The notes under the pieces are model-generated. The model was given only the letters and a program-made list of their open reading frames with translations, was not told where the DNA came from and did no database searches. Source: an uncultured bacterium (GTDB lineage Bacteria > Electryoneota > Electryoneia > Electryoneales > Electryoneaceae). From it: a DNA stretch of 51,429 bases. This document shows, piece by piece, positions 4,631 through 51,429 of this stretch. The DNA lies in NCBI GenBank assembly GCA_964648415.1, contig CAZYOC010000002.1:1-51429 (forward strand). The letters run 5' to 3'. Both the position numbers and the translations under genes were made by a program. Within the stretch, counting starts at the first letter, position 1; each line of letters starts with the position of its first letter.

Positions 4631-4779
4631 TCCCGGGCCGTGTCGAATCGTTAGCCCGGATATTTCACGAATGAACCACGGCAGTGGTTCTCTGCCATAG
4701 CCCAAGGTACGCGCCGTCCGTTTGGCGCGCACCTTGGGAGACAGGTTTACCAGATCCTGCAACCCGGCAGCGGGTTGCA
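4631..4779 (-). ncRNA. Candidate structured RNA / cluster of four stem-loops (function unknown)
   Basis: There are four hairpins. They are 4631-4660 (imperfect), 4673-4690 (7 bp), 4701-4738 (15 bp with one A:C pair that becomes G:U only on the minus-strand transcript), and 4758-4779 (8 bp, perfect). The overlapping 80-aa ORF has no convincing coding signal. Confidence 0.25.
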
Positions 4780-5265
4780 TAAAACGAAAACAGACTGTCG
4801 TCATGTGATTCAAAGCCGAAAACCCATTAAGCCGATTCTATGTAAAGGGTTAAGTTGACGAAACATGAATACTCGTGAAATATCCGGGAGCGTCGTTTGC
4901 GGCGATCCGACACACCCTCCATGTCAACACTCTCACTGTCACGTCGCCAGCACACACAGACGTGCTTCACGACTCGACAGCCCCCAGATGGCGTCAGAAC
5001 ACAGGTTCAGGCTTCAAAAATCGAGTTCTTCCTCCCCCGAGAGACTAAACTACCTGATTACAATGATTTATAACGATACGCATTCTGTGTTTCGTACGCA
5101 ATTCGTATCGTTTCCATCCCTTTCCAATGCTCTCGAAGCGTTTCCATCCGCTTCGCTTGATGTGCGTATGGCAATTCCCCTTATTGATAAACAAGCGGAC
5201 GGCGGGAAGCTGGACAGTATTTCGCAGCCGTTCAGAGTGCTGACAAACAAGATGGTGACGACGCC

Positions 5266-6264
5266 ATGAAGAAACGGATCGCACTACAAGGCATGTCCCG
5301 GGTGAATCGGCTGGTGCTGAGCCGGCTGATGGAAGATCAGAACGCGGATATTGTTGCGATCAATTCAACCGCCGAATCGGATACTCTGGCTTACCTGCTG
5401 AAGCATGAGCGTCAGCCGTCAGATTTCTCGAAGATGTTTCATGGCAACAATGGTGTACTGGAATGCAATGGTACGAAAGTCATGATGGCGAACACCCCGA
5501 GAATCGAAAAGGCCCCGTGGGAGAGCCTTGGTATTGACGTCGTCATTAACGCATGGGAGGGTGACACGCCGGAAGAGGCGAGCCCGCGGGCGCATCTGGA
5601 CGCAGGCGCGGGTCAGGTGCTGAGCATTGGTGAAAGCCGCGAAGCAGACATCCTGATTGGTCCGGGGATCAACGATGAGGATTATGACCCGGACCATCAC
5701 CGTGTGATCGTCTTACCGGAAACCATAGCCCTGTCAGCGGCCACGGTGCTGTACGCCATCGAGACAGCCTTTGGGATTGAAACCGCTACATTTACCGGCG
5801 TACACGCCATCACCGAAAACGGTCATCCGACAGATATGCCGGCGTCACCGCGCCACGTGGGACGGTCGGCGATTGAAAACCTGATTCCGGCGGCGGAAGA
5901 CCCCCTGCAGGCCATTTCCAGCATGCTGCCTCATCTCGACGGCAAGGTCAGCGGAATGTACTTTTCAGCTCCAATTGCTTACGGGGGCATGCTTAACCTG
6001 ACCGTGCAAACCGAGCAGGCCACGACGGTCGAAAAGGTGCTTCAGCAGTTCGCCAGGCTTTCCGGCACAATGGAATACAACGAACAACTGCAGGTGTCCG
6101 AAGAATCCTTCGTGTCCTCGGATGTGGCGGACACGGGACGCTTTATCGTGATCGACAGAAACGCCGTCCAGATGAGGGGAAAATATTCGATCCAAATCCT
6201 GGCCTGGATCGATCCGGACTGGGGCTATGCGGGACAAGCGGTTAGTCTGTTGAACAGCCTTTAG
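5266..6264 (+). CDS. GAPDH-fold protein lacking catalytic Cys and the NAD-binding glycine motif (probable pseudoenzyme or repurposed paralog)
   Basis: It aligns by eye along its full length to GapA: 'IVAIN', 'GVHAIT' (TVHATT), 'NLIPAA' (NIIPSS), 'AWIDPDWGYA' (SWYDNETGYS). However 'GFGRIG' is replaced by 'GMSRVN', and 'SNASCTTN' by 'LPETIALS' (Ile codon 5725-5727 at the Cys position). Confidence 0.8.
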   Translation: MKKRIALQGMSRVNRLVLSRLMEDQNADIVAINSTAESDTLAYLLKHERQPSDFSKMFHGNNGVLECNGTKVMMANTPRIEKAPWESLGIDVVINAWEGDTPEEASPRAHLDAGAGQVLSIGESREADILIGPGINDEDYDPDHHRVIVLPETIALSAATVLYAIETAFGIETATFTGVHAITENGHPTDMPASPRHVGRSAIENLIPAAEDPLQAISSMLPHLDGKVSGMYFSAPIAYGGMLNLTVQTEQATTVEKVLQQFARLSGTMEYNEQLQVSEESFVSSDVADTGRFIVIDRNAVQMRGKYSIQILAWIDPDWGYAGQAVSLLNSL

Positions 6265-6966: not shown

Positions 6967-7026
6967 GCCATACATACTATTCCCTCTCCCGGGCGTCTCC
7001 AGTTTAAGGTGGAGACGCTCGCCCTC

Positions 7027-7246
7027 TCTCATTCCCGCCTTCCAGACTGTCCCAGAATGCGAGAGGAATCTCATTCCAGCGAAGGCTGGAATCCAGTCAT
7101 GTTAATATACTACAACATGTTAACCATGAAAACCAAACGTTGAACACAACTTTGATGCTGAATTGCTAACATTATATTTTCTTGCACCTTGCCTGGATTC
7201 CAGCCTTCGCTGGAATGAGAGCGGTTTTTATTTTGATACAGACTGC
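7027..7246 (+). repeat. Family-1 dispersed element, full copy A (two inverted hairpin units flanking a ~100-bp core)
   Basis: The layout is the left flank 'cagactgtcccagaatg', the hairpin 'tcattccagcgaaggctggaatcca' (7071-7095), a core 'gtcatgttaatatactacaacatgttaacc...cttgcaccttgcc', and the inverse hairpin 'ctggattccagccttcgctggaatgaga' (7193-7220). It is about 85-90% identical by eye to 10341-10547. Confidence 0.9.
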
Positions 7247-7360
7247 TACGCGGGAATGAGAGCCATAGGACATTCTGATACAGTCTGTTCCGGGGGAATG
7301 TACTCCCCCGGCCATTTTGATACAGTCTTTTCCGCAGGAATGTCACTCGTGGTGTCATTC
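7232..7360 (+). repeat. Three tandem ~42-bp units derived from family-1 half-hairpins
   Basis: The units start 'ttgatacagactgc..gggaatgag', 'ctgatacagtctgttccgggggaatg' and 'ttgatacagtcttttccgcaggaatg'. The periodic 'LYQN' in ORF 7110..7358 (-) is their translation. Confidence 0.8.
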
Positions 7361-7494
7361 TGAGAGGTCCATTCGCTTACTACATTGCGATCCTCAAGTG
7401 ACTTTTTTTCTGCACCGCCCCCCTTGCCTTTCATCATCGCCGGAGCCCATTTTCCCCATGCGACTTTGCACAACATTTTTCCGGAGGGATACAC

Positions 7495-8814
7495 ATGAAG
7501 AGGCTTTTCAGCGTGATCGTGATCGCAATCGCCCTGCTCCTGCTGGGCTGTGGTGGCCAGGGAGATGTCTGGTTCGACGGCGGCTTCGACCAGGCCAAAT
7601 CACAGGCCATGGCCGATGGCAAGCTGATCGCGATTGATTTCTACTCGCCTACGTGAGGCCCGTGCAAACTGCTGGATCAGCAGTTCTTCAACAATCCCGA
7701 CTACAACGAGTTCCTCACCTCCAACTTTGTCCTGTTCCACACGGACAGCCATACCGAAGAAGGCAAGAAAGTCTTTGAAGCCTACAATGTACGCGGTACG
7801 CCGCAGGTGGTGGTCATCCAGGCCGACGGCGAAGAGGTCGACCGTTTCATCGGCTATGCCGGCGACCCCTCTGCACCCAAATCCGAGCTGGAGCGTATTC
7901 TGGCAGGCGAAAACACGCTACAAAGCCTGAAGCAGGCGTATGAGGAGAACCCGGACGACCCCACGGCCGCGGCGAGGCTCGCCAAGTGGTATCTCAGTAA
8001 ATACCAGTGGGATCAGGTGCCGGCGTACATCACCGTCATCCTGGAAAACGAGGAAGCTGCGAAAGAGGCGACTGGCGCCTTCGGTATGGAAGGGCAAGAA
8101 GTGTCTGCTTATGAGTTCGCCCGGGCGCTAGAGGGTTATCAATCTCCTGAAAGGGCGGCCGCCTTCTTCGAAGAGTTCCCGAAAAGTGAATTGGACGACG
8201 ATGTGCTTTCGCTGCTCGCCCGGCATCTGCGAGATATGAAGCAGCGCACCCAGACGCTGAAAATCTTCGAAGACATTCAGACCACTCATCCCAGCAACTA
8301 CAATGCGTTCGCGTATGTCGTGCGCCACTTCGGCGATCTGCGGACTGAAACAGACGCCTATGGACCAGCGGAAGGCCTGCGCTACGCGGAACCCATGTTC
8401 GAGCAGTTCGGCGCTGAGCTGGAGACCAATGACCGGCAAAGCCTGGCCACGATCTTCCTCGCGGCAAACAAGCCTGACAAGGCGCTGGAGGTCTTCGGTC
8501 CCGACTACGCTGCCGGGTTGATTGATGAGAAGGATGCCAATGGCCTGAATGGGTACGCCTGGTACTGGGCGCTGAAAGGCGAGAACCTGTCGAACGCGTT
8601 GCATGCGGCTCAGAAAGCGGTGGAGTTCGCGCCTGAAGACGCCAATATCTGGGACACGCTGTCCATGGTCTACTGGCGCATGGGCAACCATCAGGAAGCG
8701 ATCCAGGCGGAGATGCGGGCGCTGGAGTTGAACCCCGACGCAAGCGAGAACTTCCAGAAGCGGATCGACGACATCCGTGCGGACATGGAAACACAAGAGG
8801 GCGAAGCGGCGTAG
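7495..8814 (+). CDS. Selenocysteine-containing thioredoxin-like lipoprotein with a C-terminal TPR domain (UGA recoded at 7654-7656)
   Basis: ATG at 7495 with SD 'ggaggg'. The signal peptide and lipobox read 'MKRLFSVIVIAIALLLLGC'. 53 codons precede the in-frame TGA, and the same frame stays open through ORF 7807..8814. The context 'IAIDFYSPT-TGA-GPCKLLD' matches the thioredoxin motif 'DFxAxWCGPCK' with Sec in place of the first Cys. TPR repeats follow at the C-terminus ('NIWDTLSMVYWRMGNHQEAIQAEMRALELNP'). Confidence 0.8.
7667..7685 (+). promoter_or_regulatory. Candidate bacterial SECIS stem-loop
   Basis: 'aactgctg' (7667-7674) and 'cagcagtt' (7678-7685) form an 8-bp stem. The apical 'GGAUC' can open into a loop. 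The stem starts 10 nt after the UGA, which is the expected placement for SelB-dependent recoding. Confidence 0.55.
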
Positions 8815-10219: not shown

Positions 10220-10340
10220 CGTCTTGTGCGCAATCGTGGTGTGTGCCGTCAGCTCAACGGAGATACATAGGTCGAAATATTTTGCTTGACCCAATGACAA
10301 AGATAAGGCGAGGAATACGCTGAAGAAAACGGCGCAGAGC

Positions 10341-10547
10341 AGACTGTCGCAGAATGTGAGAGGTATCTCATCCCAGCGAAGGCTGGGATCCAGTCATGTT
10401 TATATACTACAAGATGTTAACTATGAAAAGACCCTATTGAACACTACAGTGGTTCTGAATTGCTAACATGTTATATTCTTGCACCTTGCCTGGATTCCAG
10501 CCTTCGCTGGAATGAGAGCTGTTCCTATTGTGATACAGTCTGAGAGG
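10341..10547 (+). repeat. Family-1 dispersed element, full copy B
   Basis: 'cagactgtcgcagaatgtgagagg', then the hairpin 'tctcatcccagcgaaggctgggatcca' (10367-10393), the core, and 'ctggattccagccttcgctggaatgaga' (10491-10518), followed by 'gctgttcctattgtgatacagtctgagagg'. It is collinear with copy A. Confidence 0.9.
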
Positions 10548-10576
10548 CAGGTATCTGAGAATTCCTTTCAGAATCA

Positions 10577-21782: not shown

Positions 21783-23894
21783 GTGGATACCCAGTCATCA
21801 CAGTCACCCGCACCGGACCAACCATCGCGCACGGCACGCCGCAGACGGCGTCCGCGCATACCTTTTCGTATCCGTATCGGCCTGCCCGCTGCTGTCACTT
21901 TAGCCGCTCTTGTGATTCGAGGCCTCTACCTGTTGCTGGCCGGGGACCTGCCAACGTTTCTCAGCCCGGGCGTCGATGCTGAAATGTACCGCGCCTGGGC
22001 GGAACGCATTCTCTCGGGTGTCCCCCAGGGCGAACCCTTCTTCCGCGGACCGCTGTATCCCTACCTGATCGCAACACTGGGTCGTGTCTTCTTTGGAGAT
22101 ACGTTCTGGACCATACGTGTGTTCCAGATTCTCGTATCCGCTATAGCCGCCGGCGCGCTCGCATCGCTGGCCTTCCGGTGGTACAGTTACACCGCCGGCT
22201 GGATCGCGGGGCTGGGCTGGGCCTTCTACGGCCTGTCGATCTATTTTGACGCCGAAGGCCTGATCACCTCCCTGTTCACCAGCGGGCTGATATTACTGCT
22301 CCTCTGGATAGACCTCTACCAGCGTAAAGCGCGGATACACTGGATCATTCTCGCTGCGATCACACTGGGCTGCATGACCCTGCTGCGGGCCAATGCGTTG
22401 ATTCTATGGCCTGTGCTGCTGTGGGCGCTGGCGTCACGTCCCGGAGCGAAGCGACGCAAACGAACCCATCCCACCTGGGTCGCCCCTCTGCTGGCGGGGA
22501 CCATCCTGATCGCCATGGCCGTACCGATCACCAGTTACAACCACAGTCGAGGCGGCGGCTGGACCATCAGCACCCAGGGCGGGATCAATCTCTACCTTGG
22601 CAACAATCCCGCCGCAGATGGCGCCTATGCCGTCGATCCGGAGTTCGGCCCCGCATGGACCCGCGCCCAGATTGAATATAGAGCCGCCCAAGCCGTCGGA
22701 AAAACACGGATCGCAAAAACAGAGACCGACAGCTACTACACCAATCAGGCGATGCGGTATTGGCTCGACAACACATGGGACGCGATCAAGCTGACGCTGA
22801 AAAAGGCTTTGATTTTCTTCAACTTCCGCGAGCTGGGAAACAACCGGCCGCTGCAACCGTTCCTCATGGAAGTGTCGCCCCTGTTCGCGTTTCTGGCCTT
22901 GATCGGATTCCCATTGATCGCCATCTTCGGGTTGCCTTTCATCCCGAAATCCTGGCAATACGTGGCGAATTCACGGCCTGCTATTGTCATGTTCGGGCTG
23001 TATTTCCTCAGCCTGTTGGCCTTCTTCATCAACGCGCGCTATCGTTTCCCGATCACACCTATCCTGGTCCTGTTGGCGGCGGGCTCCCTGGCCGATTTCA
23101 GCAACTGGCTGAAACGGGTAAAAGAGGAAAAGCAAAAGGCTTGGTTCCAGATTGGCGTACGAGTCGCAGTCGCTTTGCTCGTCCTGCTGCCCAAACCCGT
23201 CTCTACCGCCGGAATGGATGAAAACTGGCGTTTCCATCAAGCCGCGGCACGCCTGCGTCTCACTGGTCTGATCGGCGAGAACCAACCGCCCAGCGAGGCT
23301 ATTGCTTACGAAAAAAGACGAACCTGGACAATGGAAGCGCAGGAGATCCTGCTTGAACTGACCGAAAAGGGATCCCAGCGGGAAAATGTACACCTGAACC
23401 TGGGCCTGACCTATATGGCGCAGAATAAACCCGCACGCGCCAAGCAGCAGTTTGAAATGGAAATCGCCGCCAATGCCAACCGAAGCGGCGCCACCAATAA
23501 CCTGGGGGTGATCGCGCAACGCCGGGGCCAACTGGACAAGGCTGAAGCCCTCTATCGACGGTCGCTGTCTCTGGACCCAACCAATCCCGACGCGATCCAT
23601 AACCTGGCGGCCCTGCTGAACGAGACCGCACGAGTCGGCTTTGATTCGGTTCAAGTGCAACAAACCTATGAGCGGCTTCAGGAAGCTGTACGGCTCGTTC
23701 CCAACAATCCCACCTACCTCATCAACCTGGCGATGGTGGAAGTCTATCTTGGCGAGCATCACAACGCGATCAATCACCTCTATCGCGTGTTGCAACTAAA
23801 CCCGAATTCCACAACCGCACGCCAGATGCTGAGGGATCTGGGAGTTGTTCTCGATTCATCTGAGCCATCTCGATCCAGTAACGCTGAAGAGTGA
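21783..23894 (+). CDS. Polytopic GT-C-type glycosyltransferase (GT39/ArnT-like) with a C-terminal TPR domain
   Basis: 703 aa. A basic N-terminus is followed by about 10 or more hydrophobic segments. The C-terminal TPRs read 'NLGLTYMAQNKPARAKQQFEMEI' and 'NNLGVIAQRRGQLDKAEALYRRSLSLDPTNPDAIHNLAAL'. The start codon (GTG at 21783) is uncertain. Confidence 0.7.
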   Translation: MDTQSSQSPAPDQPSRTARRRRRPRIPFRIRIGLPAAVTLAALVIRGLYLLLAGDLPTFLSPGVDAEMYRAWAERILSGVPQGEPFFRGPLYPYLIATLGRVFFGDTFWTIRVFQILVSAIAAGALASLAFRWYSYTAGWIAGLGWAFYGLSIYFDAEGLITSLFTSGLILLLLWIDLYQRKARIHWIILAAITLGCMTLLRANALILWPVLLWALASRPGAKRRKRTHPTWVAPLLAGTILIAMAVPITSYNHSRGGGWTISTQGGINLYLGNNPAADGAYAVDPEFGPAWTRAQIEYRAAQAVGKTRIAKTETDSYYTNQAMRYWLDNTWDAIKLTLKKALIFFNFRELGNNRPLQPFLMEVSPLFAFLALIGFPLIAIFGLPFIPKSWQYVANSRPAIVMFGLYFLSLLAFFINARYRFPITPILVLLAAGSLADFSNWLKRVKEEKQKAWFQIGVRVAVALLVLLPKPVSTAGMDENWRFHQAAARLRLTGLIGENQPPSEAIAYEKRRTWTMEAQEILLELTEKGSQRENVHLNLGLTYMAQNKPARAKQQFEMEIAANANRSGATNNLGVIAQRRGQLDKAEALYRRSLSLDPTNPDAIHNLAALLNETARVGFDSVQVQQTYERLQEAVRLVPNNPTYLINLAMVEVYLGEHHNAINHLYRVLQLNPNSTTARQMLRDLGVVLDSSEPSRSSNAEE

Positions 23895-28285: not shown

Positions 28286-31200
28286 CTACCGCATCAGGAC
28301 CAATTTGCGAGTTTCAACCAGCCTGGCGCCGTTGGACGGCGTCACGATCAGCCGGTAGAAGTACACCCCACTGGCCAGTTCCGCACCGGCCTGGTTGCGT
28401 CCGTCCCACATCACGCTGTGGCGGCCGGACGCGTACCAGCTCCGCTCCACCGTGGCTACGAGCTGCCCAAGCAGATTGTACACCTGCAACTGCACATCGG
28501 CGGCGTTCGCCAACTCAAACGGGATCGTGGTCGTGGGGTTGAACGGGTTCGGATAGTTGGCGCCCAGACGGGTCCGGGTCGGCAACAACTGCGACTGCCG
28601 GCTGCCCAGCGAATTGATCACGGCGAACACGCCCGGGCCGTCCGTGCCGGCGTGCACGGTCTTGTTCGTCACGTCCACGTAGCTGTCGAGCTTACGCCAC
28701 TCTTTATCCGCCAGACGCCAGATCGCCAGGCCGTCTTCGCGACCGGGCAATACCGCGTATTCATCGTACGGCAGCACAATTTCGCCGTCCGCGGCCCACT
28801 GAGTCTTCACGCTTCGCACTTCCCAACGTGCGCCGGCAGAGGCTGACATGGGAACTTCGTCCGGCAGCGAACCACCCAGATCCGGTTCCGCCATCAGCAT
28901 CAATTCGGAGGTCGCCGCGTTCGGAGGAAGCTCCAGGCTTGCACCCGAAGGATCGGAAAGCAGACCGCCAACCCCCGGCTTGAACACCGTTACAGCCATC
29001 GTCGTCCGGTACATGTACTCGCCACTGGAGGCTTTCACTTCAATGAAGTTCGACTCGTCCGTCGTGTATTGCGCGCGGTACATGCCGCTGCCGGATGACA
29101 CCTCCGTCAAGGCAAGTTCATCTGTGCCTTGATACGACGTCACCTCCAGGGTCGGCATGCCCAGACCGCTTTCCAATGTGCTGACCACGATGTAGAGGGT
29201 ACGTGCGTTCACCAGGTTCGGCAGGAAGCGAATCCGAAGCGGGGCGGCGGAATCCCAGTAGCCTGCGCCGGGGCCGCCGTACAACCCGATGTCCCCAGTC
29301 TCAGTCCCCTTGCTCGGCGGGAAGCTGTAGTCTTCGTACTGCACCGCCGGATTACCGCCGTCGATCAGGGGATTGTCCCCGGCAGCAGTCCCGGTCAGGA
29401 CAAAGTCGACGGTATCCTGGAAAACCACAGCCGGGTCGGCGTCGAACACATGCTGCGCATCGTTCGTGGAATCCTCCAGCACCGAATAGAAGAACTCAGC
29501 ACCGCCGTTATCGCCGAAGGATACAGCATTGGCGCCATGACCATGAACCACGCTGTTGCGGACAATGGGATTTGAGCGGGCCACGGCGTACAGGGCATGA
29601 CCGATCCCGTCGGTGGAAACATTGCCGTACAGGATGCTGTTCAACATCACTGGCGAACAATGGTCCACCAGATTCATCCCGCCGCCATACGTGGCGGTGT
29701 TGCCCTGAATCAAGCTGTTTGAGATGGTCGGATCGGAGTAGTTCTTCATGTAGATGCCGCCACCCGGGCCGTCGACTACGCTGTTGTACCGGACAATGTT
29801 GTTGTGGAATTCCGGTTGGCTGCCCCAAATCGTAATCGCGCCACCGAAATTCTCCGCGGAGTTGTTTTCGAAAGTACAATTGACGATTGTAGGCGCCGCT
29901 TGATACATCCACATCGCGCCGCCGTCCAGGGAACTGTAGCAATCCCGGATCGTCACATCGTAGAAGGTCGGGCTGCTGTTATAGACCGACACGCCGCCGC
30001 CATGCAAGGTAAAGTCGGGTTGGGTCTCTTCTTCGTCCTCACCCAGCGGCCGGCTGTGTCCTTTTTCAATGACCACGTGTTCGAGGCGCGACCACTGGCT
30101 GGCCGCGAAGAAACGGACCCCGCCATGATACGGCGTTGATCCCTGAGTCGTGAACAACACCTTGTTATCGGCAGTGCCCAGCACCTCAAGCGTACCTTCG
30201 ACACGAATCCAGTCGTCGGTTTCTTCAAACTGGATGGTGACACCATCGAGAATCGTCAGTTTTTCGGTAGTTTCAATCACCGTCGGACCGGCGCAAATGT
30301 ATAAGGTGTCGTCACCCATTCCCCACACCTCCGGGATACCGAACGCCGGATTCGGGATGGAGCCGGAGAAATACCGGCCGCCGGTAATTCCGCGTCCGGT
30401 CAGGTACAGATGAATGCTTTCCAGATCGGTAGGAATGGTAATTTGATCCTCATACATCTGGACTGAATCCGGATCGAACAGGATGCTCAGCACCAGGCTG
30501 TCTTCCGCGGGAACAGTCAGCGGGAAACTGGAAGGATCTGTGGAAAAAGCTGTGCCGCTGAATCCCGGTTCGGATACCGTCATGGGGTGATTACCGGCAT
30601 TGTAGAGCACAACATCGTTACGTTGAATATCGCTGTTCACATCGGCGAACAGGAAATCCAAAGTGTCACCGTTGGTCACATCCGTTTCCAGGATCGGACC
30701 TTCCAGAAATGCGGACAGCCGAATGTACTTGTGTTCCGCGCTGTTGCGGACGAAAATGCTGTCCCGCAGTTCTCCAACGACTCTGCTGGGGTCGCAGATG
30801 GCGAGATAGGTATACGTCTGGCCCGGCGGAATCGACCAGGGGCCGGTCTGATCCGGGTGCGGCGCAGCGCTGAAGAAACGGGTCGCTGTTTCCAGGTGCG
30901 GTGTGGTAATCAGTAGCGGCGTGGTGCCTGTGCTGCTGATCTGGAACTCCACCGCAATCGAATCACCAAGCGCAACCGTACCGTAGTCTACCGCATTGGT
31001 GCTGATGGAAATCCCCGGGTTAACCGGTGTTCCGCGCAGTTTGTAGGGAATGTCGCCGCCTTCCGTTTCCAGCAGCAACCACACATCCACCCGCACTGTA
31101 TCATTCGCATCCGGGTGATAATGCACGTCGAACGCATCCGAACTGTCCGGCGCAATTTCAAACTGGCGTCCCGATGTCGGGATGGTAAAACGATGCTCGA

Positions 31201-32473
31201 TATAGGCCAAACGTTCTGCATCGCTATTCACGCCCGGTACGTCCAGCGAATCGGTAAGCCAGGACAAGGTGTTTTCGTTCAACTGAAAACGCAGCACATC
31301 ATGGCCGATGTTGCCGATGCCCGCTGCTGTCGAAGTTGTATCTTCCACTCGAGTCGTGGGGAAAATCAGGAAGTTGTTCCGGTCCCCGTTGGCGGCTTGC
31401 GGCACCGCCACCGGCACCGAGGTTGTCGCGAACTGAGTCCCGCCCCACGCTCCCATGTTGACGAACTGACCATGCGGCGCAGGCTCGTTATCGACACGAT
31501 CATCGGAAGGTTCACCCGTATCCACGCCAACCGAACTGTCGGTCAGTGTGTAGTACATCTCATCAGCGAAGTAGGCGCGGTCATGGTAAAGGAAATCCTC
31601 GACATTGTCATCGCCCAGGTCGCTCTGGATGCAATACCTCACGTTGATAAGGTCGTCATCGCCGCCGGAGACGAAATACGCCTGGTCCGACGTGGAAGTT
31701 TCGCCATTGTTCCAAAAGATCGTCGAACGAACATGCAGGTCTGCCTCCGGCCCCACATAGACACCGTTGCCAAAACCGGAGATGCTTCTGCCCGTGGAAT
31801 CTGTGCCACCCGAGTTATTGTGCACAATAGTGAGATTCCGCAATTGCAGCTCGCTGCGCTCCGCGTACATCCCGCCACCGTTTACCAGGGCATGGTTGTC
31901 CGCGATGATGTTATTGCGGAAAACAGAGGAAGACGACCAGAAATAGACGCCTCCGCCATTGTTGTAGGCACGGCAGTTTCGGATGATGGCGTTTTCAACA
32001 TGCGGCGACGAACCGTAGACATATAACCCGCCGCCGTTGTTCTCCGGCCACCGCCCGTGCGCATACCCGTGCTCGACCACGACCCATCGTAACACCGATC
32101 CCGGATCGCTGTTCACGAATCGGATTCCCTGCCACCGCAGCGAGTCGTCCAGGCCGGTAGTATCCTGTGTGAAGGTGACCCATTCAATATCGCCGATGGT
32201 CGCCCCGGCAGGCTGCCCCTGGGCGTTCAGAACGCCGTTGACAGTCATGCTGTAGGGCCCGTCGAACTCAACCGTCACGCCGGGCTCGATGGTCAGCACT
32301 TCACCGGCGGGAATGGTCACATCGTGAATAATCACGTAGGGGCTGTTGGCCGTGGTCCATGTCCGGGTCGTCAGCTCCGTATCAGTCACGTCTCCGGCCA
32401 TCGCCGGCGACATCAGCATCAGCAACGCCGCCGCGAGGCCTATCCATCGTGTGCTGGACTTCAGTTGCACCAT
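28286..32473 (-). CDS. Giant secreted beta-helix protein (two PbH1-type modules) with a T9SS type-A C-terminal sorting domain
   Basis: ORF 28286..32515; the ATG at 32473 has SD 'gaggtg'. It has a signal peptide and parallel beta-helix repeats rich in 'NN..GGG.Y'. The C-terminus 'NYPNPFNPTTTIPFEL...VQLQVYNLLGQLVATV...SGVYFYRLIV...KLVLMR' is a classic T9SS/FlgD-Ig-like CTD. Confidence 0.85.
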   Translation of the reverse strand: MVQLKSSTRWIGLAAALLMLMSPAMAGDVTDTELTTRTWTTANSPYVIIHDVTIPAGEVLTIEPGVTVEFDGPYSMTVNGVLNAQGQPAGATIGDIEWVTFTQDTTGLDDSLRWQGIRFVNSDPGSVLRWVVVEHGYAHGRWPENNGGGLYVYGSSPHVENAIIRNCRAYNNGGGVYFWSSSSVFRNNIIADNHALVNGGGMYAERSELQLRNLTIVHNNSGGTDSTGRSISGFGNGVYVGPEADLHVRSTIFWNNGETSTSDQAYFVSGGDDDLINVRYCIQSDLGDDNVEDFLYHDRAYFADEMYYTLTDSSVGVDTGEPSDDRVDNEPAPHGQFVNMGAWGGTQFATTSVPVAVPQAANGDRNNFLIFPTTRVEDTTSTAAGIGNIGHDVLRFQLNENTLSWLTDSLDVPGVNSDAERLAYIEHRFTIPTSGRQFEIAPDSSDAFDVHYHPDANDTVRVDVWLLLETEGGDIPYKLRGTPVNPGISISTNAVDYGTVALGDSIAVEFQISSTGTTPLLITTPHLETATRFFSAAPHPDQTGPWSIPPGQTYTYLAICDPSRVVGELRDSIFVRNSAEHKYIRLSAFLEGPILETDVTNGDTLDFLFADVNSDIQRNDVVLYNAGNHPMTVSEPGFSGTAFSTDPSSFPLTVPAEDSLVLSILFDPDSVQMYEDQITIPTDLESIHLYLTGRGITGGRYFSGSIPNPAFGIPEVWGMGDDTLYICAGPTVIETTEKLTILDGVTIQFEETDDWIRVEGTLEVLGTADNKVLFTTQGSTPYHGGVRFFAASQWSRLEHVVIEKGHSRPLGEDEEETQPDFTLHGGGVSVYNSSPTFYDVTIRDCYSSLDGGAMWMYQAAPTIVNCTFENNSAENFGGAITIWGSQPEFHNNIVRYNSVVDGPGGGIYMKNYSDPTISNSLIQGNTATYGGGMNLVDHCSPVMLNSILYGNVSTDGIGHALYAVARSNPIVRNSVVHGHGANAVSFGDNGGAEFFYSVLEDSTNDAQHVFDADPAVVFQDTVDFVLTGTAAGDNPLIDGGNPAVQYEDYSFPPSKGTETGDIGLYGGPGAGYWDSAAPLRIRFLPNLVNARTLYIVVSTLESGLGMPTLEVTSYQGTDELALTEVSSGSGMYRAQYTTDESNFIEVKASSGEYMYRTTMAVTVFKPGVGGLLSDPSGASLELPPNAATSELMLMAEPDLGGSLPDEVPMSASAGARWEVRSVKTQWAADGEIVLPYDEYAVLPGREDGLAIWRLADKEWRKLDSYVDVTNKTVHAGTDGPGVFAVINSLGSRQSQLLPTRTRLGANYPNPFNPTTTIPFELANAADVQLQVYNLLGQLVATVERSWYASGRHSVMWDGRNQAGAELASGVYFYRLIVTPSNGARLVETRKLVLMR

Positions 32474-32557
32474 GCCACCTCGTCCTTTCAAGTTGCGGTC
32501 ATCCGCCGCAATCATTCTAGCTTACCCTGCCAAACTGAATATCGATCACGTTACAGT

Positions 32558-33589
32558 CTACCTGTTGAAACGATACCCGAGACTGAAACGATGCATTCCG
32601 CCCAGGAAACCCAGTTGGGCGTAGGTATAGTCGACCATCAGGCCAATGTTGCGCAAATGCAACCCGCCACCGACACTGAATCCATGAAGCGACAGCATCC
32701 CGTCTTCGTCAATCACAGGATACTCCACGTATGGATTAAAGTTCTGTTTGTCGTTCGCTTGCTGATAGTCATCCCAGCTATCACGGGAGAACCCGTTTAC
32801 CTTTTTCCCAAGCCGGAAGAATGCAGTCTCGTTCCAGGCATACTCCCAGCCGAAATGCAGCTCTTCCACATTATCGTTCGGGTGGGTTCCCTCGACCGCC
32901 ATGGTCACCCGGTGCCGCTCCGTCTGATACAACTCGGCGGCCATCCCGAACTTGAAGTTGAGGGGTAGCGGGAAAGGCGAGGAGACAAGTTGCATGTCCG
33001 GGCCGAAGTTGCTGATCATCATGGCGATGCGCAAGGAATGCCACCCGGTGTCGTAATAGGTGCCAACGTCCGCGGCCCAACCCCGCGCAACTTCGTCCGC
33101 AAGGTTCTCCTGGATGTACTTGATCGTACCGCCCACGGAGAATTTATCCGTCAGCATCTGGGCGTAGCTGACCCCGCCGGCGAAATCAGATGCGGTAAAG
33201 GTCTGTCCGTTGCCGTGCGGACGTTCCGGTGTGGTCACATCCATCGCATCCGTGTACAGCGCCGTCATTGACACACCGATGGCACCGCCCAGCCCCGGCA
33301 TGGGCATGACATACCCGAGGAAATCGAAATTGATCCCGGCGGGCATGACAACATGGGTCAGAATGGCTTCCCGTTGTTTCAGGTTGACCATTCCGGCGGG
33401 GTTGTAGTAGAGAGTCGAAGCATCGTTGGCCACCGGAAGCAACGCATCCGCCATGGCCACCGCACGCGATGACACCCCGATCTTGAGAAAGTTGACCCCG
33501 GTCGTGCCGACCTTCGCCTGCCCGAGAGCCAATCCTGGAAGCAGCAACATGACCGCCAGGCTAAGCCCTATCCAGCGTCTCGTCGTCAT
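32558..33589 (-). CDS. porV: PorV/PorQ-family outer-membrane beta-barrel (T9SS cargo shuttle homolog)
   Basis: ORF 32558..33631; the likely start is 'MTTRRW' at 33589, with SD 'aaggaag'. After the signal peptide, 'GTTGVNFLKIGVSSRAVAMADALLPVANDASTLYYNPAGM' matches the PorV N-terminal signature. Confidence 0.75.
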   Translation of the reverse strand: MTTRRWIGLSLAVMLLLPGLALGQAKVGTTGVNFLKIGVSSRAVAMADALLPVANDASTLYYNPAGMVNLKQREAILTHVVMPAGINFDFLGYVMPMPGLGGAIGVSMTALYTDAMDVTTPERPHGNGQTFTASDFAGGVSYAQMLTDKFSVGGTIKYIQENLADEVARGWAADVGTYYDTGWHSLRIAMMISNFGPDMQLVSSPFPLPLNFKFGMAAELYQTERHRVTMAVEGTHPNDNVEELHFGWEYAWNETAFFRLGKKVNGFSRDSWDDYQQANDKQNFNPYVEYPVIDEDGMLSLHGFSVGGGLHLRNIGLMVDYTYAQLGFLGGMHRFSLGYRFNR

Positions 33590-33602
33590 GGCGTCTTCCT
33601 TT

Positions 33603-36377
33603 CTAACGAATGATGACAAATTTACCCACATCGATGTGCCCCTTGTTCTCAGGCGTCATGTCCTCGACGCTGAACAGGTACAGTCCCGAAACAACCTGCT
33701 GCCGGTTTCGACTGTTCAGGTCCCACACCGCGGCGAAATCGCTGCTCCACGTCGAAATGCGGTTCCCATGAACATTGTGATCGATGATCTGCACCAGGTC
33801 GCCCGAAACGGTAAAGATCCGGATCAGACACTGGCGGGGCAGGTTGTAGAAGTAGATCCGACGATCGGTCTGCGGGAAGAAATCGCTCGTCCCGTCATCC
33901 CGGTTCTCCCAGCTCACGAAGGTGGTATCGTTCTCAAACAACACCTGCATATGCTGAGCTGTATAATCCTGATCCGCTCGGTACGGATTGGGAACCACGC
34001 CCGGCTTCTTCTTCGGGCTGCCGGAAGGCGCCATATACAGCATGTTCGCCGTCTTCGCCGTCTCCAACGGTTCGGTGCCCGAGAACGGGTCGCCGAAGTC
34101 GACGGCTGTTACACAGTAATACCGCGGAATCAGGGGGTTGACCTTGCCCAGGTTGAACTTGTAGGTGGAATCGTCAAACGCGATCCCCTCCAGCCCGACA
34201 TTCGGACCAACCGGCTGCAGGTAGCCCACCGTACCCACACCGTCAATGATGGTCGGGTCCAATGTGTCCGGGTTGGTCGTCTTGATCGGCACTTCCATCA
34301 GCGAATCCCGCTCGCTGTAATAGCCGTAGTCCTCCACGTCAAACTCGGCCAGGAAGCTGAACGTGTTTTCCAGGCCTTCGTTGGAGACATACACACGATA
34401 GGCTTCAAAGTCCTGCAACCGGCTGAACGGGTCAACATAGTTCGGGTCTTCTGACGGGAACTTGTGCCAGACAAGCGTCAACTCGTCCTCAGTCACTTCG
34501 TAACTCAGTACAGGAGTTTCCGGAGGCGGCGGTCCCTGGAAATCAGCGATGCCGTCACCCTGGTCGAACAATTCGTTGTTGTAAGTGTAGTCAACAAAGG
34601 TCGGCCGGAAGCCGTTCTGATCCTCCTCCGATTGCAACAACCCATCGGTTTCACCTTCGTCCGGCCCCTCATATACATAAGACCGGGTCACACCCCACAC
34701 ATCGGTAAACTCGACCGTTTTACCGATGGTATCGGAATAAACGCTGTCAACGCCGACATCCTCACCGAACCAGCCGTCGCCGTTCGAGTCGATCATCGGG
34801 TTGTCGTATACTTTCGCCGCCCAGTCCGCGTTGTACTGGAAATCGCTGAAGTCATACTTCGCCGGATCCAAATTGGTGTCGGTATCCTGCGGATTGTTGC
34901 GATCATGGAAGTTCTGACCGCCTACATAGGCGATGGTCATGGTGAACTTTTCGCCCGGATTCAAGCGGTAGACACGGTTGCCGGCTTCATCAATGAAGTC
35001 GAAGATGCCAAGCGGCCCCCAGGAGATCAGGTAACGAGTATCGTAGCCGTCCGCCAGGTCAGCGGGAACCTCGGGCGGGGTGTTGTCATCTTCACCCGGA
35101 ATGTACCAGTCGTACGATTCCGCAGGCGGTGCGTCGGGCGCCGCAAACCGGCTGCGGAATTCCTGCGGATGCTGCGTGATATAGTCCGGATCGTCCACGT
35201 AGACCTGGTCGTAGTCGAATTCCCGGTTGGACAGGACGAAGTATTTCCTCGCATCGTCTTCCGGCGTCCCCAACGAAGCTGTCCATGCCCCCGGGGATCC
35301 GTCATCCCGCCAGGCCGGACCGAAGTCCAGAGTCTCGTCCTGGTTGGAAATCCACCAGTTGAAGGATGTCCGCAGTTTCGGGTTGGGCGCTCGCACCACA
35401 CGCGCGCCGGTAACCCCCGGGCAGGAAAACGCGCCGGAGCTGACGTTCGGCGGACGACCGTCATTATCTGCAATGTACGCGGTATTGATCGTCAGGTTGA
35501 TCGATTCGCTGCCGCCGTCCGGCGTATACTCGAAGGACTTTTTGAACCCGCAGATATCGTCGGTGTGACGTTCCGATTCGCCGACCATACCCACGTCCGC
35601 GTCCACGTACAACCCGATATACAGGTTCTTCAGGAAGTTGTTGGCGATGTTCTCGATCTCGTAGTCGATCAGCAGGAAATCCTGAGCGTAGTTGTAGGAC
35701 CACGCGTAGGACTTCTGCGTCACCTTGATCCCGAGGGGGATATGCGCCCCGTCCTTCGCCGTGGAAATCAACCTTCCCGTGGGATCCAGGCGGCTGGTGT
35801 CCGTATAGGTCGCGATGAAATCCTGCTCGGAAACGGCTGAATCGCTGGAGATGAAATCACCCAGACAGTTGAACGCCTGCTGCCGGGTGGAGCGTTCCTC
35901 GATTCCGTGATCCGGTTCATAACCGGGGAAGAATTCCTGCCCCAGAAAATCGTTGTTCGCGGACGCCACCCATCCTTCCAGGCCATGGGAAACACGGGGA
36001 TACTCGAAGCCCTCTTCCTTGATCATGGCGCCGATCCACAGACCGCCCTGGAAGAGATACTGCACTCCGCTACCGCCGGGGAACTCCGCCTGCGGCGCCC
36101 ACTCGTTCGTACATGGATCGGGCAAAGATCCCGCACGAGTTTCGCCATCATTACCGAAGTACCCATAGTTGGTCACGTTCAACCAAAGCTTGCCGACATC
36201 ATGCACACGGTTTTCAATGTCCATGGTGTTCAGCATGGTGCGATACCCCGGATCCACCGGGCCGGAAGCACTCGCCGGCCCTTTCGCCGCTTGCACCGTG
36301 ACCGCCCCCGTGACTGCCAGTAACACCGCAATCACGATTTTCAGGGATGTCTTTTTCGCCAATCCGTTCATCCGCAC
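33603..36377 (-). CDS. Large secreted protein of unknown function with a T9SS-type C-terminal domain
   Basis: 924 aa with a signal peptide. The C-terminus reads 'VVPNPYRA...CLIRIFTVSGDLVQII...SGLYLFSVED...GKFVIIR' (CTD-like). Confidence 0.75.
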   Translation of the reverse strand: MRMNGLAKKTSLKIVIAVLLAVTGAVTVQAAKGPASASGPVDPGYRTMLNTMDIENRVHDVGKLWLNVTNYGYFGNDGETRAGSLPDPCTNEWAPQAEFPGGSGVQYLFQGGLWIGAMIKEEGFEYPRVSHGLEGWVASANNDFLGQEFFPGYEPDHGIEERSTRQQAFNCLGDFISSDSAVSEQDFIATYTDTSRLDPTGRLISTAKDGAHIPLGIKVTQKSYAWSYNYAQDFLLIDYEIENIANNFLKNLYIGLYVDADVGMVGESERHTDDICGFKKSFEYTPDGGSESINLTINTAYIADNDGRPPNVSSGAFSCPGVTGARVVRAPNPKLRTSFNWWISNQDETLDFGPAWRDDGSPGAWTASLGTPEDDARKYFVLSNREFDYDQVYVDDPDYITQHPQEFRSRFAAPDAPPAESYDWYIPGEDDNTPPEVPADLADGYDTRYLISWGPLGIFDFIDEAGNRVYRLNPGEKFTMTIAYVGGQNFHDRNNPQDTDTNLDPAKYDFSDFQYNADWAAKVYDNPMIDSNGDGWFGEDVGVDSVYSDTIGKTVEFTDVWGVTRSYVYEGPDEGETDGLLQSEEDQNGFRPTFVDYTYNNELFDQGDGIADFQGPPPPETPVLSYEVTEDELTLVWHKFPSEDPNYVDPFSRLQDFEAYRVYVSNEGLENTFSFLAEFDVEDYGYYSERDSLMEVPIKTTNPDTLDPTIIDGVGTVGYLQPVGPNVGLEGIAFDDSTYKFNLGKVNPLIPRYYCVTAVDFGDPFSGTEPLETAKTANMLYMAPSGSPKKKPGVVPNPYRADQDYTAQHMQVLFENDTTFVSWENRDDGTSDFFPQTDRRIYFYNLPRQCLIRIFTVSGDLVQIIDHNVHGNRISTWSSDFAAVWDLNSRNRQQVVSGLYLFSVEDMTPENKGHIDVGKFVIIR

Positions 36378-36423
36378 ACCGTCCGTCTATGTTGCCTCGT
36401 CGCTACGAGTTCATGTCTGTTTC

Positions 36424-38439
36424 TTACCAGGAGAACGAGCCACCGAAAGCGCCCAGGTCTGTGCCGTCGCTGCCGGCGTTCTTGCAGGGGCTGCCCGCCT
36501 GCAGGGAGAAGTCGCCCGCGGCAGGATCGGCAAACTGAGGATCGCCATCAATTTCATTGGCGATGTTTACCTGGCCGTATGTGGGAGTACCGCTGCCCGA
36601 GTAGAGATTCACATAGCTCAGCGTTCCCACGGACGAGATTTCCGCACGGGCGCCGTAATCACCATACTCAGCAATGATGCTGTTGGTGATGGTCGGCAGG
36701 CAGTTTCCCTTGATCCTCAGCCCGTTGTTCGTCGGCTGGTACACCGTCACATTGGCAATGGACGGGCTGCATCCCTGTTCGAGAACGATTCCGGAGACAG
36801 TGACGTTGTAGATCAGCACATTGCTGATAGTCGGCCGGCAATTCCGCCAGGCGTAGATGCCGTAACCCTGCATGTTGTAGATCTTCGCTCCCGTCAAGGA
36901 AGCATTGGCGTTCTTCGAGAAGTAGATGCCGTACATCCCTGCGTCATGCACCGTGATGTTCTCAAGCGTTGGCTGCGCGCCGTCATCGCAGAAGATACCG
37001 GTGTGGTACACGTTCCGAATTTCGATATTCTTCAACGTCGGGCTGCACGCGATGATGGAAATGGCGCCGACGCTGTAGGGATCGGCGATGTTGTCCACCG
37101 ACGCCCATTCAGCGATCACGTGCTCCATCCTGCTGTTGTTCGACGCTCCCTCGAAACGGATGTTTTTCCAGTCCACACGCGTGGGCTCTTCACTGTAGGA
37201 AGAGAACAGAATCGGCGCCGACGCGGTCCCGACAGCCTGAATCTCGCCTTCGATCACAAATTCAAAGGGCTCGGCGAACAAGACGGTCACGCCGGGATCA
37301 ATGATCAAGGTGTCGCCTTCCGCCACCAGGACATCACAGGTCACCAGGTAATGCTCATAATCTGTGGTGAGGTGCAACCGGTCACCGATCAGGGTGTGCG
37401 CCAGTTCGTTTTCCGCCTGGAAATGCGGGAAAACGCCCACATCCGGCGTGGTGCCGTCCGGATCCTCATCATACCCGCCGAACCCCGCGCCCTTGTCGAT
37501 CGCACCGCTACAGGGATGCAACGTGTAGTCGCCGTTCTCGATGTCTACAAAACCCGGATCGAGATGTACGTCACCCGAGACCAGCTCACCCAGTTTCAGC
37601 GGCAGGTAGTTCGGCGACTTGTTGTTGTAGATGTTGTTGTGGAAGAAGTTGTCCGAAATCCACTGGTTGTCGACATAGGCGTCGTACAGGCTGGGGGCGC
37701 GAATGCCGGCGTCCTCGTTCTGCACGATGATGTTGTTGACAATCACCGGCTGACCGTACACCGACTCACCGATATTGTAGTCCGGCTCAATCCGCAACCC
37801 GTTGAAGGCGTTCAGCGCCATGGTGTTAAACACGACTGTCGGGCTGGCGTCACCCAGGATCTGGATGCCGTCATAACCGGCGTTATCCACAATGGTGCGC
37901 CGAATGGTCGGAGAACAATTGTAGATCGTAATCGCGCCACGATACAGGACCCGGTCAATGAAGGGATCACCGTTGTCATCGTACGCGCGAGTGGTGTCCT
38001 GTACGATGTCATACTTGTTGGCCCAGGAGACCCAGCAGTATTCCATGATGGAAGCGTCATCTGCTTCCTCAAGAATCACACCGCCCCAATCGCCTTTCCG
38101 CTTCGGCGACTGCGCCGAAGTGAAATGGATGAGCTGAGTTTCAGTCCCGCGAGCATCGAGTTTGCCGTTGACTGTAAACGTGTAGCCATCCATACCACGG
38201 ATCACCACGCCCGGATCAATGATCAGAGTCTGGCCATCCGGGACGGTCACATCGCCGGTGAGCAGATACGGACTCGAACTGAGACTCAGGCTGCCGCTGA
38301 CATCGCCGCTGAGGGGTGTTCCGGACGGACCACCTCCCCCACCGGTGTCGTCGTCTTCATCGCCGCACCCGGTTATCAACCCCAGGGAAACCAATACAAT
38401 GACTGCACTGACAGTCAGGGATAAGAAACGCTTCAGCAC
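36424..38439 (-). CDS. Beta-helix (PbH1 repeat) surface lipoprotein, paralogous in module structure to the 1395-aa protein
   Basis: 671 aa with lipobox 'LITGCG'. Two modules each start with a cap motif: 'YLLTGDVTVPDGQTLIIDPGVVIRG...VNGKLDARGT' and 'YLVTCDVLVAEGDTLIIDPGVTVLF...IEGEIQAVGT'. Confidence 0.8.
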   Translation of the reverse strand: MLKRFLSLTVSAVIVLVSLGLITGCGDEDDDTGGGGGPSGTPLSGDVSGSLSLSSSPYLLTGDVTVPDGQTLIIDPGVVIRGMDGYTFTVNGKLDARGTETQLIHFTSAQSPKRKGDWGGVILEEADDASIMEYCWVSWANKYDIVQDTTRAYDDNGDPFIDRVLYRGAITIYNCSPTIRRTIVDNAGYDGIQILGDASPTVVFNTMALNAFNGLRIEPDYNIGESVYGQPVIVNNIIVQNEDAGIRAPSLYDAYVDNQWISDNFFHNNIYNNKSPNYLPLKLGELVSGDVHLDPGFVDIENGDYTLHPCSGAIDKGAGFGGYDEDPDGTTPDVGVFPHFQAENELAHTLIGDRLHLTTDYEHYLVTCDVLVAEGDTLIIDPGVTVLFAEPFEFVIEGEIQAVGTASAPILFSSYSEEPTRVDWKNIRFEGASNNSRMEHVIAEWASVDNIADPYSVGAISIIACSPTLKNIEIRNVYHTGIFCDDGAQPTLENITVHDAGMYGIYFSKNANASLTGAKIYNMQGYGIYAWRNCRPTISNVLIYNVTVSGIVLEQGCSPSIANVTVYQPTNNGLRIKGNCLPTITNSIIAEYGDYGARAEISSVGTLSYVNLYSGSGTPTYGQVNIANEIDGDPQFADPAAGDFSLQAGSPCKNAGSDGTDLGAFGGSFSW

Positions 38440-38453
38440 GTCAACCCCCTGTC

Positions 38454-46473: not shown

Positions 46474-46486
46474 AAGAAACTCCTGT

Positions 46487-51220: not shown

Positions 51221-51429
51221 TTAACATTCTGTAGTATATGAACTTATCTGGATTCCTGCCTTCCAGACTGTCGCAGAATCAAACCCACTCTCATTCCCGC
51301 GAAGGCGGGAATCCAGGCAAGATGCAAGAATACAATAAGTTAGCAATTCAGAACCAGAGTAGTGTTCAATAGGGAGTTTTTATGGTTAACATGTTGTAGT
51401 ATATAGACATGACTGGATTCCCGCCTTCG
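51221..51429 (-). repeat. Family-1 element: a partial copy plus copy C with its core inverted, truncated by the window end
   Basis: 51221-51262 is the tail of one copy. It is followed by 'ttccagactgtcgcagaat' and the hairpin 'tctcattcccgcgaaggcgggaatcca' (51290-51316). Then comes a core equal to the reverse complement of the copy A/B core (~88% identical to the reverse complement of copy B by eye), and finally 'ctggattcccgccttcg' cut by the window end. Confidence 0.9.

Follow-up and report, generated by a model that had tools for sequence, protein, structure and literature searches.

This study concerns a single gene on a 51,429-nucleotide stretch of DNA (hereafter the window) from an uncultured bacterium of the Electryoneaceae (Electryoneota), comprising positions 1 to 51,429 of the forward strand of contig CAZYOC010000002.1 in GenBank assembly GCA_964648415.1. 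The gene, at 7495–8814, is predicted to encode an exported selenoprotein in which a thioredoxin (Trx) fold with selenocysteine (Sec, U) in its redox motif is joined to a domain of tetratricopeptide repeats (TPRs). The features of this locus, with the selenocysteine insertion sequence (SECIS)-type hairpin proposed to recode its internal TGA and the open reading frame (ORF) that is called by default, are as follows.

7483–7487, + strand: Shine-Dalgarno-like GGAGG, 7 nt 5' of the ATG at 7495, from direct reading of the sequence
7495–8814, + strand: predicted selenoprotein coding sequence, 439 sense codons with Sec at position 54, one open frame with one TGA
7495–7551, + strand: predicted signal peptide ending in an L-L-G-C lipobox, from sequence inspection
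7582–7860, + strand: thioredoxin-fold domain, residues 30–122, from the Thioredoxin_7 and Thioredoxin_2 matches
7654–7656, + strand: TGA, putative selenocysteine codon (U54), first residue of the U-G-P-C redox motif
7663–7665, + strand: TGC, putative resolving cysteine C57, last residue of U-x-x-C
7667–7685, + strand: bacterial SECIS-type hairpin AACUGCUG-GAU-CAGCAGUU, starting 10 nt after the TGA
7807–8814, + strand: default (and in our reading wrong) gene call, a GTG-start fragment of 335 aa, from the ORF list
7918–8808, + strand: TPR-type helical-repeat superhelix, residues 142–438, from Pfam, the AlphaFold2 (AF2) model and Foldseek

An earlier interpretation made from the letters and their ORFs (the sequence-only reading) had proposed that the frame is open back to the ATG at 7495 behind a good Shine-Dalgarno sequence, that the TGA at 7654–7656 is its sole break, and that standard gene callers would lose the catalytic part of the protein. 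Every detail of this proposal holds. From the ATG to the TAG at 8812–8814 the frame is interrupted only at codon 54, in the context LIAIDFYSPT-TGA-GPCKLLDQQFF, and the GGAGG lies at the 7-nt spacing given above. The ORF list for the region contains just two fragments, 7495–7656 (53 aa) and 7807–8814 (335 aa, starting at GTG), and the second of these is the protein on public record for the contig (P0001), which is without the signal peptide and without most of the catalytic Trx domain.

Conservation of the TGA was assessed at the DNA level in loci L001–L007, L008–L015 and L017 and in 19 Joint Genome Institute (JGI) metagenome loci that include the N-terminal region; L008–L015, from a scan of one genome per GTDB species, are the eight loci that could be tested there, all from uncultured metagenome-assembled genomes (MAGs). 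A TGA occupied the same alignment column in 36 of 36 related loci, which represent about 26 distinct sequences with 23–54% protein identity to the window protein. The loci share a common layout of signal peptide, WFEG, a beta-strand (LVLIDFY), TGA and then x-x-C. Across the junction in L001–L007 the stop was TGA every time, followed by GPCR, GGCR or GECQ, and the Cys at the third residue after U was kept in all family sequences examined except L039 (UGGT). The intervening dipeptide varies freely (GP, TP, GG, GE, SE, GS, GT, GA, PG, SS, ST). These data bear directly on the explanation that the locus is a pseudogene or that a TGC or TGT was turned into TGA by faulty sequencing or assembly. A single base change is enough to convert either codon to TGA, but the same TGA recurs in 36 loci that were assembled independently, come from different samples and lineages and show the divergence just given, and the remainder of the frame is intact and conserved; we give this explanation almost no weight.

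Protein catalogues gave a consistent picture of the same column. A search of 5.8 billion clustered proteins returned only a handful of close relatives. The database homologs P0002, P0003, P0004 and P0006 begin at “(M/L)L(D/V)QQ(F/Y)F,” five residues past the TGA column, and on their source contigs an ORF of 49–56 aa ends 12 nt 5' of the called gene. A profile search of 1.84 billion representative proteins yielded 180 matches at E<1e-30 (clusters at 50% identity). Among the best 150 of these there are nine full-length proteins, 56 that start immediately past U-x-x-C-[KR], 76 shorter fragments and 11 large, unrelated TPR proteins. Seven of the nine full-length matches carry CGPC, CGWC, CSWC or CQGC at the U-G-P-C column and have the same signal peptide, Trx and TPR arrangement as the window protein, whereas the other two (P0145 and P0157) show W at the Sec column (“SDGWGGCR”). 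At the DNA level the P0145 codon is TGA (L017 535–537), so the gene caller had used a code in which TGA is Trp, and P0157 is probably the same case. Decoding as Trp is thus a second route by which members of the family are mis-annotated, in addition to loss of the N-terminus. Sec forms outnumber Cys forms by approximately 8:1, and judged from the aligned sequences we take the alternation of predicted Sec with Cys at the Trx nucleophile column to be the classical Sec/Cys signature. The alignment of TGA or Cys at this column, which had been proposed as a check on the selenoprotein assignment, is therefore seen both in the 36 loci and in the seven full-length CxxC homologs.

Two members depart from the common design. 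The distant member L039 (652–670) reads U-G-G-T-G, with no resolving Cys and a one-residue insertion, and thus has a UxxT-type active site. P0098 (632 aa, from a JGI metagenome), a Cys form, has three tandem Trx domains, each with DFYT(E/D)WCGWCK, before its TPR domain.

For domain assignment, Pfam and NCBIfam were searched with the joined product, in which Cys was placed at position 54. Both Pfam Trx matches span codon 54: Thioredoxin_2 covers residues 39–122 (E 4.6e-13; 49.9 bits against a gathering cut-off of 27) and Thioredoxin_7 covers residues 30–109 (E 1.5e-9; 38.3 bits, same cut-off). This agrees with the proposal of the sequence-only reading that the TGA falls at the first Cys of the thioredoxin W-C-G-P-C-K site, after the beta-strand LIAIDFY. 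The cis-Pro motif of the domain is T102-P103, with P103 encoded at 7801–7803. Farther downstream, TPR_14, TPR_19, TPR_1, TPR_2 and TPR_8 match residues 142–174 and 345–425, parts of a superhelix of about 300 residues and approximately eight repeats, and two family-invariant motifs, LNGYAW(F/Y)WA and (A/D)NxWDT(L/M)SMV(Y)W, lie near the C-terminus. A word-based homolog search with the window Trx domain alone gave no match. The best PDB sequence relatives of this domain were the putative disulphide isomerase 2kuc, thioredoxins and DsbD gamma domains (∼1e-5). No model in NCBIfam release 20 reached its cut-off on the joined product; the nearest were the selenoprotein TsoB (NF045694, through its DsbD-like C-terminal part; 42.9 vs. 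805 bits), DsbD (29.5 vs. 330 bits), DsbH (24.7 vs. 190 bits) and the Trx7/PDZ (seleno)protein NF041199 (13.7 vs. 300 bits).

Structures were modeled with AF2 for the closest full-length Cys homolog, P0038, and for residues 55–439 of the window protein. The P0038 model (predicted local distance difference test score, pLDDT, 94.9; predicted template modeling score, pTM, 0.84) contains a standard Trx fold, in which helix alpha1 has CxxC at its N-terminus, and after it an uninterrupted solenoid of helical repeats. The window model (pLDDT 95.4, pTM 0.89) is all-helical from residue 142, with the solenoid spanning 142–438. The Trx elements of both models have pLDDT values of 93–97 or better, except for the first ten modeled residues of the window protein (81). 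Foldseek neighbors in the PDB are generic TPR superhelices, namely consensus TPR (CTPR) designs, OGT, SPINDLY and the lipoprotein LbcA, and no Trx plus TPR analog appeared near the top of the structural search with either model. Together the profile matches and models show that the window protein combines a Trx fold with a TPR fold.

These results also address the alternative in which the TGA is a real stop, leaving a 53-residue lipopeptide and a separate TPR protein translated from an internal start (for example GTG 7807, or CTG 7669 as public gene calls have it). Such a division matches the gene-caller output for the window and for some 60 homolog clusters. However, a stop at this point would cut the Trx fold between strand beta1 and the active-site helix, as seen in the Pfam matches and the P0038 model, and Cys-form homologs are single polypeptides across it. 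There is neither a Shine-Dalgarno sequence nor a conserved ATG after the TGA, and the called “starts” are simply the first CTG, TTG or ATG past the stop. Nor does this alternative explain why some 26 diverged sequences should all have a stop precisely where CxxC begins, and all but L039 the partner Cys as well. No homolog was found with a genuine stop followed by a separate downstream gene: the “separate genes” of the public catalogues all begin 5 residues after the TGA and are gene-caller artefacts. We consider it very improbable that translation ends at codon 54.

If the TGA is recoded, a SECIS element would be expected in its vicinity, and the sequence-only reading had suggested looking for one. 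According to a 2026 review of prokaryotic selenoproteomes, bacterial SECIS elements have an apical loop of 3–9 nt, a stem of 4–16 bp and a G in the first two loop positions, with a distance of 16–37 nt from UGA to loop and a minimum free energy of −7.5 kcal/mol or lower (PMC13188914). The window hairpin lies within all of these published limits (PMC13188914), with a 3-nt GAU loop that starts with G, an 8-bp stem, 18 nt from UGA to loop and −9.7 kcal/mol for the hairpin alone. Of the first 14 loci, 12 have the hairpin at this site, and RNAalifold recovered the same helix independently. Across 23 distinct sequences, 92.4% of cells were paired, compared with 18–66% in slid controls; the central five pairs were invariant, and pair 34–48 was U-A in 14 sequences, C-G in seven and U-G in one. 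The hairpin that follows the TGA is therefore conserved with compensatory changes in addition to having the published geometry.

Codon usage in this segment shows the same coupling. In the first 15 loci, the first Leu and second Gln codons were CTG with CAG in three loci and TTG with CAA in nine, and mixed combinations did not occur; one later locus, L026, has TTG with CAG, which gives a U-G wobble. In the GC-rich genes TTG makes up just 2–7% of Leu codons and CAA 6–19% of Gln codons. LLDQQ is strictly conserved among the Sec forms but not retained by the Cys forms, which places the constraint on the RNA rather than on the protein. In L012 (3998–4052), only a 4-bp remnant is left at the usual site, and a well-formed alternative hairpin, AUUCUUC-GGU-GAAGAAU, lies 33 nt from the UGA of that locus, which suggests that the SECIS moved within the family.

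We also considered that the TGA might be read as a standard amino acid, either because the code is reassigned (TGA as Trp or Gly) or by read-through that does not involve Sec. In its favor, public pipelines gave P0145 and P0157 a Trp at this codon. In the window, however, TGA terminates five of the 19 Pfam-supported genes and is in frame in none of their 10,596 codons, demonstrating use of the standard genetic code. Furthermore, the TGA occupies the position of a nucleophilic Cys rather than a Trp or Gly position, and the conserved SECIS-type hairpin follows it. Decoding as an ordinary amino acid is accordingly a very poor candidate, about as improbable as termination.

Given the TGA/Cys column, the SECIS-type hairpin and the domains that run across the TGA, we place the probability that 7495–8814 is one gene encoding a selenoprotein with Sec54 at roughly 0.88, an estimate drawn from comparative sequence evidence. 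The sequence-only reading, in which the product would be an exported Trx-TPR selenoprotein, is supported. Several observations weigh against this assignment. Taken alone, the window hairpin folds no better than shuffled sequence (z = −1.1), so the case for a SECIS rests on the comparative data; the hairpin overlaps the codons of a conserved helix, with changes on both sides in only two of its eight pairs, and it is weak in L007 and displaced in L012. Searches of Rfam gave no match at the gathering threshold and no relevant match at E ≤ 1. The Sec machinery was sought by motif scans for SelA, SelB and SelD in 249 kb of DNA and by a search for tRNA-Sec in the window and 13 related loci. None of selA, selB, selD and tRNA-Sec turned up in the window or across ∼249 kb of related DNA, a negative that is uninformative given the short flanks, and the window contains no sel genes and no tRNA at all. 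Finally, a redox partner such as DsbD or CcdA is not a conserved adjoining gene in the neighborhood comparison, which makes the direction of the reaction and its substrate guesses.

The N-terminus of the window protein, MKRLFSVIVIAIALLLLGC, has a charged start (MKR) and a hydrophobic core, followed by L-L-G-C, in which Cys19 (7549–7551) is the predicted lipidated residue. Leu at position −2 falls outside the strict lipobox consensus [LVI][ASTVI][GAS]C, whereas the LAGC and LTGC of close relatives are canonical. Homolog N-termini have LAGC, LTGC, AAAC, AAGC or ILGC lipoboxes or else a plain signal peptide, and the conserved WFEG comes after. From these sequence features the window protein is probably exported and lipid-anchored. 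The lipid anchoring proposed in the sequence-only reading would hold for the window protein and for around half of its relatives, and does not extend to the remaining relatives, which have ordinary signal peptides.

Our proposed mechanism begins with translation from the ATG at 7495. The hairpin at 7667–7685 would act as a bacterial SECIS at the UGA (7654–7656) and recruit SelB with Sec-tRNA(Sec), such that selenocysteine would be inserted in place of termination. The signal peptide would then take the protein across the inner membrane, with Cys19 as the likely site of lipidation. The mature protein would consist of a DsbD-gamma or Thioredoxin_2/7-type fold, with U54-G-P-C57 at the N-terminus of helix alpha1, and of the TPR superhelix. 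Its chemistry would most likely be thiol/selenol-disulfide exchange on envelope proteins, in which the Sec54 selenolate would attack a substrate disulfide or oxidized cysteine, Cys57 would resolve the mixed selenenylsulfide, and an electron donor would then re-reduce the Se-S bond. The substrate polypeptide, or else a partner protein, would be bound in the groove of the TPR domain. SelB-dependent insertion, export, lipidation of Cys19, the redox direction and the role of the TPR domain are all steps that we infer from the features described above.

On the same sequence-level grounds, a role as a protein-disulfide reductase or isomerase seems fairly probable. The G-P dipeptide and the reductase-type relatives favor a reducing or isomerizing role, while the variability of this dipeptide in the family and the one UxxT member leave other chemistries open. 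The protein could instead be a selenoprotein with a different function, i.e., a peroxidase-like scavenger, a handler of polysulfide, selenium or metal(loid)s, or a DsbA-like oxidant, with the TPR domain serving as scaffold or anchor only. In addition to the very variable U-C dipeptide and the UGGT of L039, with its missing resolving Cys, this alternative draws on the lack of a conserved DsbD or CcdA nearby and on the clade in which genes for a PMT_2 glycosyltransferase and a TPR protein precede the selenoprotein gene. Set against these points, the U-G-P-C of the window protein has the dipeptide of reducing thioredoxins, the best NCBIfam and PDB matches to the Trx domain are reductases or isomerases (the DsbD C-terminal domain, DsbH, thioredoxins and 2kuc), and the TPR superhelices of known proteins bind polypeptides. 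We therefore regard these other functions as unlikely, though with more to recommend them than the alternatives in which codon 54 is not Sec.

The selenoproteins known as “thiol:disulfide interchange protein” form the closest catalogued family, which is said to go back to Kryukov and Gladyshev in 2004. They have a Trx-like 2 domain (PF13098/cd02953, DsbD-gamma-like) with UxxC and occur in Geobacter and Syntrophus (PMC13188914; PMC1794560; PMC2398784). The window family shares with them its best Pfam family (Thioredoxin_2), Sec in the first position of UxxC and the DsbD-gamma-like branch. No TPR domain has been described for the thiol:disulfide interchange family, whose catalogued representative is WP_011366075.1, and the two are compared here by their published descriptions. 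Their distributions also differ, the window family being found in MAGs of the Fibrobacteres-Chlorobi-Bacteroidetes (FCB) group and in MAGs labeled Acidobacteriota, not in Desulfobacterota.

The sequence-only reading had compared the protein with CnoX/YbbN of Escherichia coli, which is cytoplasmic and has a non-catalytic SxxC motif. The domain order is indeed the same, an N-terminal Trx fold followed by C-terminal TPRs, and the idea of a client-holding TPR domain carries over. Membership in the CnoX family does not, given the signal peptide, lipobox and catalytic U-G-P-C motif of the window protein. YbbN was neither among the 60 PDB sequence matches listed (of 131 at E ≤ 0.01) nor among the top 50 structural neighbors. 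The Trx7/PDZ (seleno)protein NF041199 follows the same design logic, a Thioredoxin_7-type selenoprotein domain with a peptide-binding module, but its motif is CxxU and its module PDZ, compared with UxxC and TPR in the window family.

The best NCBIfam matches of the Trx domain, all far below their family cut-offs, were to DsbD gamma, DsbH and the C-terminal region of TsoB, which are periplasmic Trx folds of the reductant type. The window protein differs from this group in its TPR extension and in lacking any membrane or rhodanese domain. Among the best structural neighbors (query-normalized TM-score 0.45–0.47) was LbcA of Pseudomonas aeruginosa (PDB 7rqf and 8sxf), an envelope lipoprotein that partners the CtpA protease and uses its TPR superhelix to recruit both partner and substrate proteins. 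The likeness is that of a generic TPR fold at 14–16% identity, and LbcA has no redox domain.

Trx-fold proteins with UxxC are the commonest kind of bacterial selenoprotein. Public sources name members of the present family “TPR repeat protein” at most, and no matching family is present in the 119-family list of the 2026 review (PMC13188914), in the text of the BSepDB paper or in NCBIfam release 20. We found no mention in the literature of a bacterial Trx-TPR selenoprotein or of a UGPC motif, and the paper describing Candidatus Electryoneota makes no mention of selenocysteine use. The family is thus apparently a new, uncatalogued architectural variant of the familiar Trx-fold UxxC selenoproteins, the principle itself not being new.

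The scan for promoters and terminators gave no signal above background, and the gene appears to be monocistronic. In the neighborhood comparison, synteny of the family was clade-specific only. A response-regulator/kinase gene lies downstream of the selenoprotein gene in the window and in L008, which is on MAG chromosome OY769902.1. In L002 (6060–9622), L009, L010, L011, L020 and L024, a PMT_2-type glycosyltransferase gene (562 aa) is found directly upstream on the same strand, and where the sequence extends far enough upstream (L002, L009 and L010) it is preceded by a gene for a TPR protein of ∼620 aa. The MAGs of this PMT_2 clade are partly labeled Acidobacteriota. The window has a gene for a PMT_2 and TPR fusion at 21783–23894, 13 kb from the selenoprotein gene.

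Intergenic DNA around the gene contains a dispersed palindromic repeat, with copies of ∼220–320 nt at 7026–7345 and 10340–10560 that are 84–91% identical and flank the selenoprotein gene and the adjoining kinase gene. Each long copy has 59-nt inverted arms and 42-nt sub-repeats. The 25-nt repeat core, CATTCCAGCGAAGGCTGGAATCCAG, occurs six times in the window, including at 105–129 and 51292–51316, with 0 occurrences expected by chance. The core is itself a hairpin, with compensatory changes between copies (CCAGC/GCTGG, CCTGC/GCAGG and CCCGC/GCGGG). On both strands the repeat gave a sub-threshold match to Rfam RF02625 WsnRNA46 (45.7 vs. 65.3 bits).

The remainder of the window also encodes PAS and hybrid kinases, housekeeping genes and the following cluster.

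28286–42293, − strand: secreted/outer-membrane protein cluster with two beta-helix proteins, one of them with a FlgD_ig C-terminal domain

Further members of this cluster are a PorV-like protein (32558–33631), a 924-aa ORF without a Pfam match and a 1279-aa TonB-dependent receptor with a CarboxypepD_reg domain, and the whole looks like a type IX secretion or polymer-utilization neighborhood of the sort typical of FCB-group bacteria. The product of the isocitrate dehydrogenase gene (42504–43826, − strand) shares 90% identity with a protein on a 5,447,365-nt contig and 85% with that of Candidatus Electryonea clarkiae (Candidatus Electryoneota/AABM5-125-24), Calditrichota ranking after it, which places the organism in a candidate lineage of the FCB group. 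The gene for a thioredoxin-reductase-like flavoprotein (Pyr_redox_2, 344 aa) lies at 45490–46524 (− strand), 37 kb from the selenoprotein gene, and there was no sign of a functional link between the two. A scan of all ORF pairs in the window that are split by a single TGA gave no convincing case of a second selenoprotein. The candidate at 4655–5269 was rejected because its upstream part is not coding-like, as was a CobW-like gene beside the L001 homolog, which proved to be intact.

The family is large (180 clusters) and is systematically split or mistranslated in public protein catalogues. Because it is absent from NCBIfam release 20 and from the 119-family list, it will go on being overlooked by annotation pipelines; the present alignment, together with the conserved hairpin, would suffice for a family annotation model. 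The dominance of Sec over Cys forms is unusual and suggests that selenium is functionally required. As a tentative proposal, which we hold as a possibility rather than an expectation, this uncatalogued family in which Sec is the rule may represent an extracytoplasmic “seleno-chaperedoxin,” whose TPR cradle would present envelope or secreted proteins to the selenolate. It could then serve selenium-dependent folding or repair in the envelope of Candidatus Electryoneota, other FCB-group bacteria and the organisms behind the MAGs labeled Acidobacteriota, possibly coupled to protein O-glycosylation in the PMT_2 clade. With a predicted selenolate site outside the cytoplasm that would be tethered to a large protein-binding domain, these proteins are concrete candidates through which envelope redox biology could depend on selenium, both in uncultured lineages of the FCB group and in MAGs labeled Acidobacteriota.

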